From: an uncultured Alphaproteobacteria bacterium
GTDB taxonomy: Bacteria; Pseudomonadota; Alphaproteobacteria; RF32; CAG-239
Direction of reading: 5' to 3'
Length of the DNA: 64,000 bases
Assembly: GCA_947630965.1 (NCBI GenBank)
Contig: CANRJO010000005.1
Location: 203 to 64,202, forward strand
Under the pieces are notes generated by a model. The model did no database searches. It was not told the DNA's origin and worked only from the letters and a program-made list of their open reading frames with translations. Every line of letters starts with the position of its first letter. Within the stretch, counting starts at the first letter, position 1. Of this stretch, positions 55,929 through 57,022 are shown piece by piece. The position numbers and the translations under genes were made by a program.

Positions 55929-56972
55929 ATGCGACATGTGTTGATTTTGTTGGCTTTATTAATTACCAATGTGGCAAATGCAATAGATTGTGAGAAAACG
56001 CCAAATTGTGAAGAGTTAGGTTATTCCAAAGAAAATGACCCGAATTGTCTTGAGGACGGTTATATGCTCTGCCCATTTGATTTTACTTTTAAGAAATGTG
56101 TAGAGAAAGACTGTGCCAAACTCGGTTTTACCACATCTGACAAATCATCATGGTGCAAAGAAATTATAAAATGTCAGGGCAATGAAGATTATACTCTTTG
56201 CAATGAGAAGATTATTCCTCTCAATTGTGAAATCGGTGATGTTTATTATGCTGACGGGTCATGTGGCAAGGTCAATGATTATGTCAAAGATTCTTCGCCG
56301 AAACCTATCGGTGTTGTTTATTGGGTTACAGAAGACAAACAGCATGGCAAAGTGATTAACCTTAAAGACTTGGGTAGAAGTTCGTCAAGCGCCAAGTTTG
56401 ATCCTGCTGATCCATATCAGACAAGAAATAAAACCTTCCAGTGGGGTAGTTACCGTATGGACATTCCCGATGTAAAGAATTGGGATTGTAATACTGGTGG
56501 TTATGCAAGTACGGCGAAGACAGGGGATCATGACAACGAGTTTTGGTCAGGTGGTAAGGAATACACAGAAATTATTGCAAAAGCTCAAAGCGATGATTTG
56601 CAGTATGCAGCGCCTGCAGCAAGGGCATTTTATCCGCCAGATGTTGATCAAAACGACTCAAAAGTTGGTCAAGGGAACTGGTATTTGCCGACGGTGGGTG
56701 AGCTTATGGACTTGTATGGGTATGATTATCCAAACGTGAGCGGTTGTCAAGAAACAACAGGAAGTAACGGTCAGACCAAGAATAAGGTAAACGCTACGCT
56801 TACCACCTTGAAGAGCAAAGGTGTAACGGCTGAAACGTTAACAAATAATTACTATTGGTCCTCGTCGGAGTACAATAGTGACCGCTCATGGAAGCTCGGC
56901 ATGAACAGTGGTACCCGGTACTACTACAGTAAGCTCAGCAGCTACTCTGTTCGTGCGAGTCTGGAGTTTTAA
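55929..56972 (+). CDS. Secreted Cys-rich protein with C-terminal DUF1566/C-type-lectin-fold domain (probable DGR target)
   Basis: Signal peptide; CEELGY...CPFD module; PIGVV, WYLPTVGEL, YYWSSSE...SW...VRA..EF. Confidence 0.8.
   Translation: MRHVLILLALLITNVANAIDCEKTPNCEELGYSKENDPNCLEDGYMLCPFDFTFKKCVEKDCAKLGFTTSDKSSWCKEIIKCQGNEDYTLCNEKIIPLNCEIGDVYYADGSCGKVNDYVKDSSPKPIGVVYWVTEDKQHGKVINLKDLGRSSSSAKFDPADPYQTRNKTFQWGSYRMDIPDVKNWDCNTGGYASTAKTGDHDNEFWSGGKEYTEIIAKAQSDDLQYAAPAARAFYPPDVDQNDSKVGQGNWYLPTVGELMDLYGYDYPNVSGCQETTGSNGQTKNKVNATLTTLKSKGVTAETLTNNYYWSSSEYNSDRSWKLGMNSGTRYYYSKLSSYSVRASLEF
56850..56972 (+). other. Putative DGR variable region (VR)
   Basis: Only 1 of the last 40 codons ends in A; non-conserved positions are mostly NNC/NNT codons (TAC AAT AGT GAC CGC; TAC TAC TAC AGT; AGC AGC TAC TCT). 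Confidence 0.6.
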
Positions 56973-56990
56973 TTAAATATTATATCGTTT

Positions 56991-57022
56991 AAAAAACGCC
57001 GCATTTATTTGCGGCGTTTTTT
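56991..57022. terminator. Hairpin: terminator, and possibly a DGR target hairpin
   Basis: AAAAAACGCCGCA-TTTATT-TGCGGCGTTTTTT, 18 bp after the stop codon. Confidence 0.8.

Follow-up and report, generated by a model that had tools for sequence, protein, structure and literature searches.

The final 117 nt of a gene for a predicted secreted, C-type-lectin-like protein are almost certainly a variable region (VR) written by a diversity-generating retroelement (DGR) whose template repeat (TR) is located on another contig. The gene lies in the window, by which we mean the whole 64,000-nt stretch of DNA that was analysed; it corresponds to bases 203-64202 of contig C5 in the assembly under study, G000 (1.52 Mb in 102 contigs, 93.6% complete, 42.7% G+C). 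The best explanation overall, to which we assign a probability of roughly 85%, is that a TR on contig C37 has served four genes, the window gene among them, and that the element is now disabled in G000. The window gene is a genuine remote DGR target and belongs to a known class of DGR targets. Less common is the orphan TR, for which the assembly contains neither a reverse transcriptase (RT) nor the accessory protein Avd. The gene and the parts of its VR are located as follows.

55929..56972, plus strand: DGR target gene, an ORF of 347 aa
56856..56972, plus strand: VR, 117 nt, in gapless alignment with the TR at G000:C37:7265-7381
56880..56947, plus strand: mutagenised tract, delimited by the outermost substituted TR adenines (TR positions 25-92)
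56948..56972, plus strand: 3'-terminal part of the VR, conserved and G+C-rich, GTTCGTGCGAGTCTGGAGTTTTAA, where an IMH (initiation-of-mutagenic-homing) element would be

The C-terminal sequence encoded by the target gene is YYWSSSEYNSDRSWKLGMNSGTRYYYSKLSSYSVRASLEF. The original prediction had singled out this tail for its scarcity of codons ending in A, and the scarcity is real: among the final 40 sense codons a single one ends in A, versus 72 of the 307 codons that precede them (Fisher p = 0.0008). C in the third position rises from 16% in the rest (48/307) to 40% in the tail (16/40), and the ratio of TAC to TAT is 6:1 in the tail versus 2:15 elsewhere in the gene. When the gene is scanned in sliding windows of 40 codons, three or fewer A-ending codons are found only at starts 302-306, and all earlier windows have at least four. 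Given the residues and the codon usage of the genome, 6.8 A-ending codons would be expected in the tail. The observed count is far below this, and together with the TAC:TAT shift this means that the signal is more than an effect of amino acid composition. The shortage of A-ending codons in the tail is accounted for by the template codons, because substitution of both adenines in AAC or AAT yields NNC or NNT and the C or T in the third position is kept.

A BLAST search with the tail against the genome retrieved many paralogs and one short copy outside any gene. This copy, G000:C37:7265-7381, is the TR. It is non-coding, lies 390 bp 3' of a paralogous target gene (C37:5841-6875) and has the sequence WSSSEYNSNNSWKLNMNNGNRNYNNKNNNNYVRASLEF; no other such Asn-codon-rich copy is present in the assembly. 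The positions that vary in the gene family are nearly all AAC or AAT in the TR. The window VR, which makes up the final 38 codons and the stop codon of the target gene, differs from the TR at 19 positions, 17 of which are TR adenines (44 of the 117 nt are A; Fisher p = 5.4e-7). The adenines are replaced by G in nine cases and by C and T in four cases each. Sixteen of these 17 substitutions fall on codon positions 1-2, across 12 template codons (ten AAC or AAT, two TAC or TAT), and the remaining one turns the third-position A of an AAA codon in the TR into G. A template outside the window had been predicted, and it is this non-coding copy on C37.

Paralogs sharing the same scaffold had also been anticipated, and three further genes carry such VRs. 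TR adenines account for 17 of the 18 mismatches in the gene adjoining the TR (C37:5841-6875), for 21 of 26 in C20:20957-22054 and for 22 of 28 in C17:3722-4750 (Fisher p < 1e-6 for each). One of the four VR-bearing genes is thus 390 bp upstream of the TR, and three, the window gene included, are on other contigs. In the non-target paralog C19a 17 of 33 mismatches are at TR adenines (p = 0.04) and all bases are affected, and in the non-target paralog C42a the count is 26 of 38. The window gene and the C37 gene are 75% identical over the 360 nt upstream of the VR. Inside the tract they are identical at 52 of 52 non-adenine sites and at 17 of 40 adenine sites. Mismatches that are confined to adenines, combined with identity at the other sites, are the hallmark of mutagenic retrohoming from a TR.

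The four VRs seem to differ in age. Every change inside the tract of the window VR and of the C37 VR is at an adenine, so their last rewriting was recent on the scale of neutral change. The C17 VR has six non-adenine mismatches, of which those at TR positions 51 and 84 fall inside the tract, and the C20 VR has five, near its 5' end; these two VRs appear to be older or less cleanly written.

In the window VR only two differences from the TR are not at adenines, 56954 G>T and 56960 C>T (TR positions 99 and 105). Both are synonymous third-position changes located 3' of the last substituted adenine. The segment 56948..56972 is located where an IMH element would be expected, and we infer a corresponding function by analogy with the system of phage BPP-1 (Guo 2011, PMC3240598). 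Up to 25 bases are identical at the 3' ends of the TR and the VRs, and no consistent IMH/IMH* difference could be defined between the TR and the VRs of the four genes.

Downstream of the stop codon the following feature is found.

56990-57023, plus strand: terminator-type hairpin with an A-tract, a 7-bp GC core, a 6-nt loop and a T-tract

The predicted stem has 14 pairs and starts 18 nt past the stop codon (core CGCCGCA/TGCGGCG, -24 kcal/mol). The consensus terminator scan did not list the hairpin, since its T-run pairs with the A-tract and so forms part of the stem. Each of the four targets is followed by a GC-rich hairpin whose stem starts 10-21 nt past the stop codon. The original prediction had described the hairpin as a component of the DGR. 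Its existence and its distance of 18 nt from the stop codon stand, but it was rejected as evidence specific to a DGR: an identical stretch of 70 nt with the same hairpin is found 3' of the non-target paralog C19:2907-3980, and similar hairpins are found 3' of many non-target family genes. The hairpin is best read as a predicted bidirectional terminator of ordinary type. The DGR hairpins of the BPP-1 type, as described by Guo 2011 (PMC3240598), have stems of 7-10 bp and 4-nt GRNA loops, lie 4-34 bp past the VRs and are terminator-like in nature, whereas the hairpin in the window has a 6-nt loop and A- and T-tracts and is shared with non-targets.

Within 100 nt upstream of the TR there is a motif, AAAAGGRYTRYCSACAG, which occurs as a single copy in the G000 assembly. 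This pre-TR motif aligns with sequence ahead of TR-like copies in eight related genomes. The relatives are MAGs of uncultured gut Alphaproteobacteria (CAG:495, Candidatus Scatocola and "uncultured Azospirillum"; one is titled Rikenellaceae). Of 61 genomes belonging to the same family, 19 gave RVT_1 matches, which exceed the cut-off in 18 of them, and in 14 of the 20 loci that the motif retrieved from relatives an RT-like ORF starts 107-363 nt past the start of the last TR. In relative G050 the order is target VR, Avd, motif, TR, RT. All 16 TR/VR mismatches of G050 are at adenines, and its Avd matches NF033474 with E = 5.5e-17, which is below the curated cut-off. Avd is also present in relative G002. 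From these alignments we take the TR of G000 to belong to a real DGR lineage, homologous with the TR-RT cassettes of its relatives.

Some relatives have tandem TRs. These are not new as such, as multi-TR DGRs have already been reported (Yan 2019, PMC6642488). The exact 42-nt core of the TR had no match in metagenome contigs. A literature search combining RF32 with DGR gave no match, and the supplementary tables of surveys may list these MAGs. The notion that the 3' end of the TR is VR-like and in this unlike the relatives was dropped, since the TR/VR identity of G050 likewise reaches the end of the ORF.

An RT gene beside the template, which the original prediction had led one to expect, is missing from the 93.6% complete assembly of G000. 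A profile search with PF00078 gave no RT candidates in G000, and tblastn with the RT ORFs of 12 relatives returned noise only (E >= 0.09). Avd was likewise not found in G000, either by tblastn with the Avd of two relatives or with NF033474 (0 matches). In place of an RT gene, the 3' end of a convergent gene of 444 aa abuts the TR on C37, at 0 nt. Of the claim that a DGR elsewhere diversifies the window gene, the DGR-written VR and the remote TR therefore hold, and diversification at the present day is unsupported, since the searches of G000 turned up no RT and no Avd.

The genome of a sister species, G001, is 100% complete, and TR, pre-TR motif and cassette-type RT are all absent from it. Starting with TR position 1, C37 can be aligned with G001:C22 at 88%; on G001:C22 a complete family gene ends at the place that matches the TR, ahead of the same convergent gene. 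On the other side of this island, thrS and its neighbour are 98-99% identical between G000 and G001 at the protein level. The island itself, from thrS to the convergent gene, is 3.7-3.9 kb long and is unrelated between the two genomes. Because the TR abuts sequence that in G001 follows the VR of a family gene, we suggest that recombination at the TR/VR repeat reshaped the island and in doing so eliminated the RT. It should be noted that this deletion scenario draws on a comparison with one sister genome, and that an island wholly different between G000 and G001 fits other histories equally. The sole RT of G001, on C3, was ruled out as this cassette; it has a phage-like setting, next to a variable protein of phage type and a cell-wall hydrolase, and lacks a pre-TR motif.

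Evidence at the level of reads comes from Logan contigs of four runs from one rabbit-gut sample, the only runs found to contain the stretch, at a depth of ~3-8. The sample is probably the source of the assembly. In all four runs the junction between the TR and the downstream sequence is bridged by a contig (X1 1532-1824, with no differences; X2 1478-1813, with five; X3 1539-1806; X4 1524-2018). The junction between spacer and TR is bridged in X3 and X4, and the cis VR, that of the C37 gene, is covered in one of the four runs. In three of the four runs contigs break in the first 45 nt of the TR, its 5' part (L009 1524-1567), and given these breaks the sample could contain a second TR-like sequence or context. 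With four runs from one sample, likely to be the source of the assembly, and with low depth, the support for the junction is not independent.

We lean towards a DGR that was recently disabled, with the RT truly lost from G000. That the RT is merely unassembled has a smaller, still substantial chance: no RT was found, the assembly is 93.6% complete and many of its contigs terminate within genes of the target's family, and an RT on an unbinned contig is for these reasons possible. In a rival explanation, an intact DGR would remain active and continue to diversify the window VR, with its RT and Avd located in the unassembled 6% of the genome, on a contig that was not binned or on a co-resident element. 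We regard this as a possible reading, well short of even odds. It fits an assembly that is incomplete and broken by family repeats, the absence of non-adenine change in the window and C37 tracts, which is expected after recent homing, the break of Logan contigs within the TR in three of four runs, and the ability of Avd, TR and RT to act in trans from a plasmid, as reported in Wu 2018 (PMC5758913). It fits poorly with the position of the convergent gene, at 0 nt where an RT-like ORF follows 107-363 nt past the last TR in 14 of 20 loci of the relatives, and with the bridging of this junction in four of four runs. Moreover, the whole assembly has one TR and one pre-TR motif, and the complete genome of the sister species is without any such cassette.

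The join between the TR and the convergent gene might also be an assembly chimera, the true TR being followed by an RT and the flank being derived from a separate family gene with a confusing VR. This we consider improbable. The identity of up to 25 bases at the 3' ends of TR and VRs, the occurrence of the same flank behind a family gene in G001 and the contig breaks inside the TR are all compatible with a chimera. Against this, a second assembler, Logan, arrived at the same junction in all four runs with at least 100 bases on each side and, in X1, with 0 differences. The common 3' stretch is shorter than the 31 nt that correspond to k = 31 in Logan assembly, and no G000 contig has an RT or a close orthologue of the body of the G001 gene (best 57.5% identity). 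An explanation without any retroelement, in which paralogs diverge under diversifying selection or gene conversion and have a Tyr/Ser/Asn-rich lectin tail, is highly improbable: it would suit a large family with tails variable at the same residues and the TR-adenine excess of the non-targets C19a and C42a, but not 52 identical non-adenine sites out of 52 in genes that are 75% identical just upstream, a non-coding reference copy with AAC/AAT codons and a motif common to the relatives' TR-RT cassettes, or a deficit of A-ending codons (1 versus 6.8) that persists after residue composition.

For the DGR-written VR and the orphan TR we propose the following mechanism. An RNA copy of the TR at G000:C37:7265-7381 would be reverse-transcribed with random misincorporation opposite adenines, and the cDNA would replace the 3' end of a target gene. 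The codons at 12 template positions would be rewritten, these lying on the presumed ligand-binding face of the secreted Lcl_C/DUF1566 protein, and the adenine-poor scaffold codons would be left unchanged by homing. A single TR would in this way serve four genes, one in cis and three on other contigs. Recombination at the TR/VR repeat would then have removed the RT, so that the element is disabled and the orphan TR remains.

The target protein starts with a Sec-type signal peptide, MRHVLILLALLITNVANA, as read by eye. In brief, a Cys-rich N-terminal module of ~80 residues is followed by a C-type-lectin-like Lcl_C/DUF1566 domain at residues ~100-347. The Pfam family Lcl_C (PF07603) matches residues 245-343 only, with E = 4.3e-7 and a score of 30.7 bits, which is under the Pfam gathering score of 34.9 bits. 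The AlphaFold2 model, for which 21 paralogs were used, reaches pLDDT > 90 from residue 101. Structurally it is closest to 4eps, a fimbrial protein of Bacteroides ovatus (Z 15.7). The C-terminal domain of Legionella Lcl, 8q4e_A, matches with Z 12.9, rmsd 3.0 and 26% identity, with 129 of 131 residues aligned (Foldseek E = 8e-4, prob 1.0), and dozens of C-type lectins follow behind these two at Z 5-7. As modelled, the fold of the target domain is C-type-lectin-like, as in the solved C-terminal domain of Lcl. The target of the Treponema DGR has a fold of the FGE-sulfatase type, unlike the target in G000.

A phmmer search with the target protein against PDB sequences gave no match; it was through the structural model alone that the fold was reached. 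A related-locus search with the target protein detected no relative in genome contigs or metagenome contigs. Both DUF1566-type and remote DGR targets are documented by Wu et al. 2018 (NAR 46:11, PMC5758913) and by Yan 2019 (PMC6642488).

The target gene is a member of a large family. In G000, 33 ORFs have the C-terminal domain and 50 match the N-terminal module, four of them weakly (E >= 2e-6). In ~17 of these 50 the C-terminal part is a different one. Upstream of the target gene we found the following feature.

55600..55704, no strand assigned: candidate invertible promoter with arms at 55600-55624 and 55680-55704

The arms are 25-nt inverted repeats centred on GGTACC. They are 84% complementary and have 55 nt between them. 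The TTGACA hexamer between the arms points away from the gene, and we read the candidate promoter as being in the "OFF" orientation. The sequence AAAGGTACC has five copies in the window versus 0.38 expected. TTGACA beside a GGTACC core is found upstream of 41 of the 50 family ORFs, and most of these have paired GGTACC cores 73 or 84 bp apart. Among the 41, there are 38 in which TTGACA points away from the gene, two in which it faces the gene and one with both directions.

Of the known systems, the DGR of Legionella pneumophila with its target LdtA ("category d", of the CLec2 DUF1566 type; Wu 2018, PMC5758913) resembles the one described here in having a C-terminal VR in a secreted Lcl_C/DUF1566 domain, an Asn-codon-rich TR and adenine-specific substitutions; the relatives of G000 also share with it an Avd and an RT adjoining the TR. 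It differs in that the target in G000 has a Sec-type signal peptide (by eye) rather than that of a lipoprotein and belongs to a family of ~50 genes, and in that the TR of G000 has no adjoining RT or Avd.

The DGR of Treponema denticola (Nimkulrat et al. 2016, PMC4891356) likewise has one TR and several targets far from the cassette, and "leftover" VRs with the adenine pattern persist in isolates without RT. In those core-less isolates, as reported there, both RT and TR are gone, whereas in G000 the TR and the motif are kept and RT and Avd are missing.

With the DGR of Bordetella phage BPP-1 (mtd, avd, TR, brt; Guo 2011, PMC3240598) the window gene shares a VR at the 3' end of the gene, a G+C-rich end and a GC-rich hairpin within 4-34 bp. 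The BPP-1 DGR is phage-borne, whereas the element in G000 is chromosomal.

A further likeness is to the Bacteroides DGRs that act on the adhesive tips of Type V pili (bioRxiv 10.1101/2024.11.15.621889), in which a lectin-like surface or adhesin domain of a gut bacterium is hypermutated; the best structural match of our model is, as given above, a B. ovatus fimbrial protein. In contrast to that system, the host of G000 is an alphaproteobacterium with a small genome, and the target is apparently a free, secreted Cys-rich protein and no pilus subunit.

The result leaves the knowledge of how DGRs work unchanged. It does show that a DGR target can be recognised by codon usage alone, with RT and template out of view, so that a scan of this kind could pick up targets, whether remote or orphaned, that are missed by RT-anchored DGR finders. 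A DGR lineage of uncultured Alphaproteobacteria from the gut is documented as well, and the targets that it rewrites belong to a very large family of lectin-like secreted proteins.

When the observations on the family, its promoters and the DGR are joined, they may describe a two-tier system of surface variation in a gut alphaproteobacterium with a 1.5-Mb genome. We speculate that ~50 secreted Cys-rich lectin-like genes are placed behind small invertible promoters (2 pointing towards the gene, 38 away), and that a subset of them is also hypermutated, now or recently, by a chromosomal DGR; in sister genera this DGR has as many as 7 TRs in tandem, and every TR of such an array has a separate set of remote targets. 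In G000 this second tier would have been frozen by the loss of RT and Avd through TR/VR recombination, with the orphan TR left behind. This joint reading is tentative, and we hold it to be plausible rather than probable. What G000 appears to offer is a snapshot of DGR decay, in which the TR is retained and RT and Avd are gone. If that is true, it indicates how DGRs die and for how long their products remain "frozen".

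A conserved non-coding element lies 40-80 nt ahead of every template repeat (TR) in this DGR lineage, and it may act as a promoter or form part of the DGR RNA. In the genome that harbors the target gene (G000), the element follows a hairpin-rich spacer between the cis variable region (VR) and the TR. The features of this locus are:

G000:C37:6876-7100, G+C-rich hairpin cluster in the spacer between cis VR and TR
G000:C37:6990-7023, perfect 34-nt palindrome within the hairpin cluster
G000:C37:7145-7185 and aligned places in 8 relatives, conserved non-coding element, GGAGnGAGC ... 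AAAAAGGRYTRYCSACAG

The cluster also includes a tetraloop hairpin, GCGCCC-GAAA-GGGCGC, roughly 50 nt downstream of the cis VR. The spacer (G000:C37:6876-7100) contains no ORF, and the corresponding place in the related genome G050 is occupied by the Avd gene. Logan contigs from three of the four runs start or stop within the first 45 nt of the TR (positions 1524-1567 of L009, the TR locus of G000), and in run X3 the contigs overlap by 29 nt within this interval. These breaks may reflect low depth, or the sample may contain another TR-like sequence that creates a branch.

The DGR of related genomes has its TR units in tandem arrays, spaced by about 270 or 550 bp and each preceded by the conserved motif (L029-L048, MAG contigs); 13 of these 20 loci hold 2-5 units. 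The longest array was found in the related genome G077:

L075 (G077:C6:12200-16410), seven TR-like copies followed by one RT

Remote VRs of G077 match single TRs with mismatches at adenines only: all 18 mismatches fall at adenines for the C55 VR against TR1, as do all 18 for the C50 VR against TR2, and 19 of 22 for the C41 VR against TR2. DGRs with multiple TRs have already been reported (Yan 2019, PMC6642488), but arrays of this length seem unusual.

The sister species G001 encodes a different RT, placed between an upstream ORF with a Gly/Asn-rich, variable-protein-like tail at its end and a downstream cell-wall hydrolase gene:

L019 (G001:C3:55968-59573), phage-type DGR RT, 383 aa

Secreted Cys-rich proteins form a very large family in the 1.5 Mb genome of G000. 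Genome-wide, the lectin-like C-terminal domain is present in 33 family ORFs, three of which carry several tandem copies. The N-terminal module is matched by 50 ORFs (4 of these weakly), about 17 of which have a different C-terminal part. Family genes are interrupted by contig ends on many contigs. Two distant members, neither of which gave a Pfam match, follow the target gene (window 55929-56972):

window 57085-58161, distant family member
window 58327-59397, distant family member

Intergenic repeats about 125-190 nt long, with 75-97% identity, are dispersed in dozens of copies, with dozens of places in G000, and often stand next to family genes. Copies in G001 include:

L049 (G001:C22), 5105-5294, dispersed repeat copy
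L050 (G001:C28), locus positions 4254-4411, dispersed repeat copy

Small candidate invertible promoters precede 41 of the 50 family ORFs in G000, the remaining nine being without one. They have a TTGACA hexamer enclosed by inverted arms of 25 nt, which are centred on GGTACC and in most cases spaced by 73 or 84 bp. Those in the window are:

window 55600-55704, candidate invertible promoter, inverted arms and TTGACA hexamer
window 57044-57055, candidate invertible promoter site

Of these 41 candidates in the G000 assembly, 38 have the hexamer pointing away from the gene and two have it pointing towards the gene (C19:2907-3980 and C31:319-1515); the remaining one shows both orientations. As read from the assembled sequence, these orientations would be compatible with phase variation in which few genes of the family are on.
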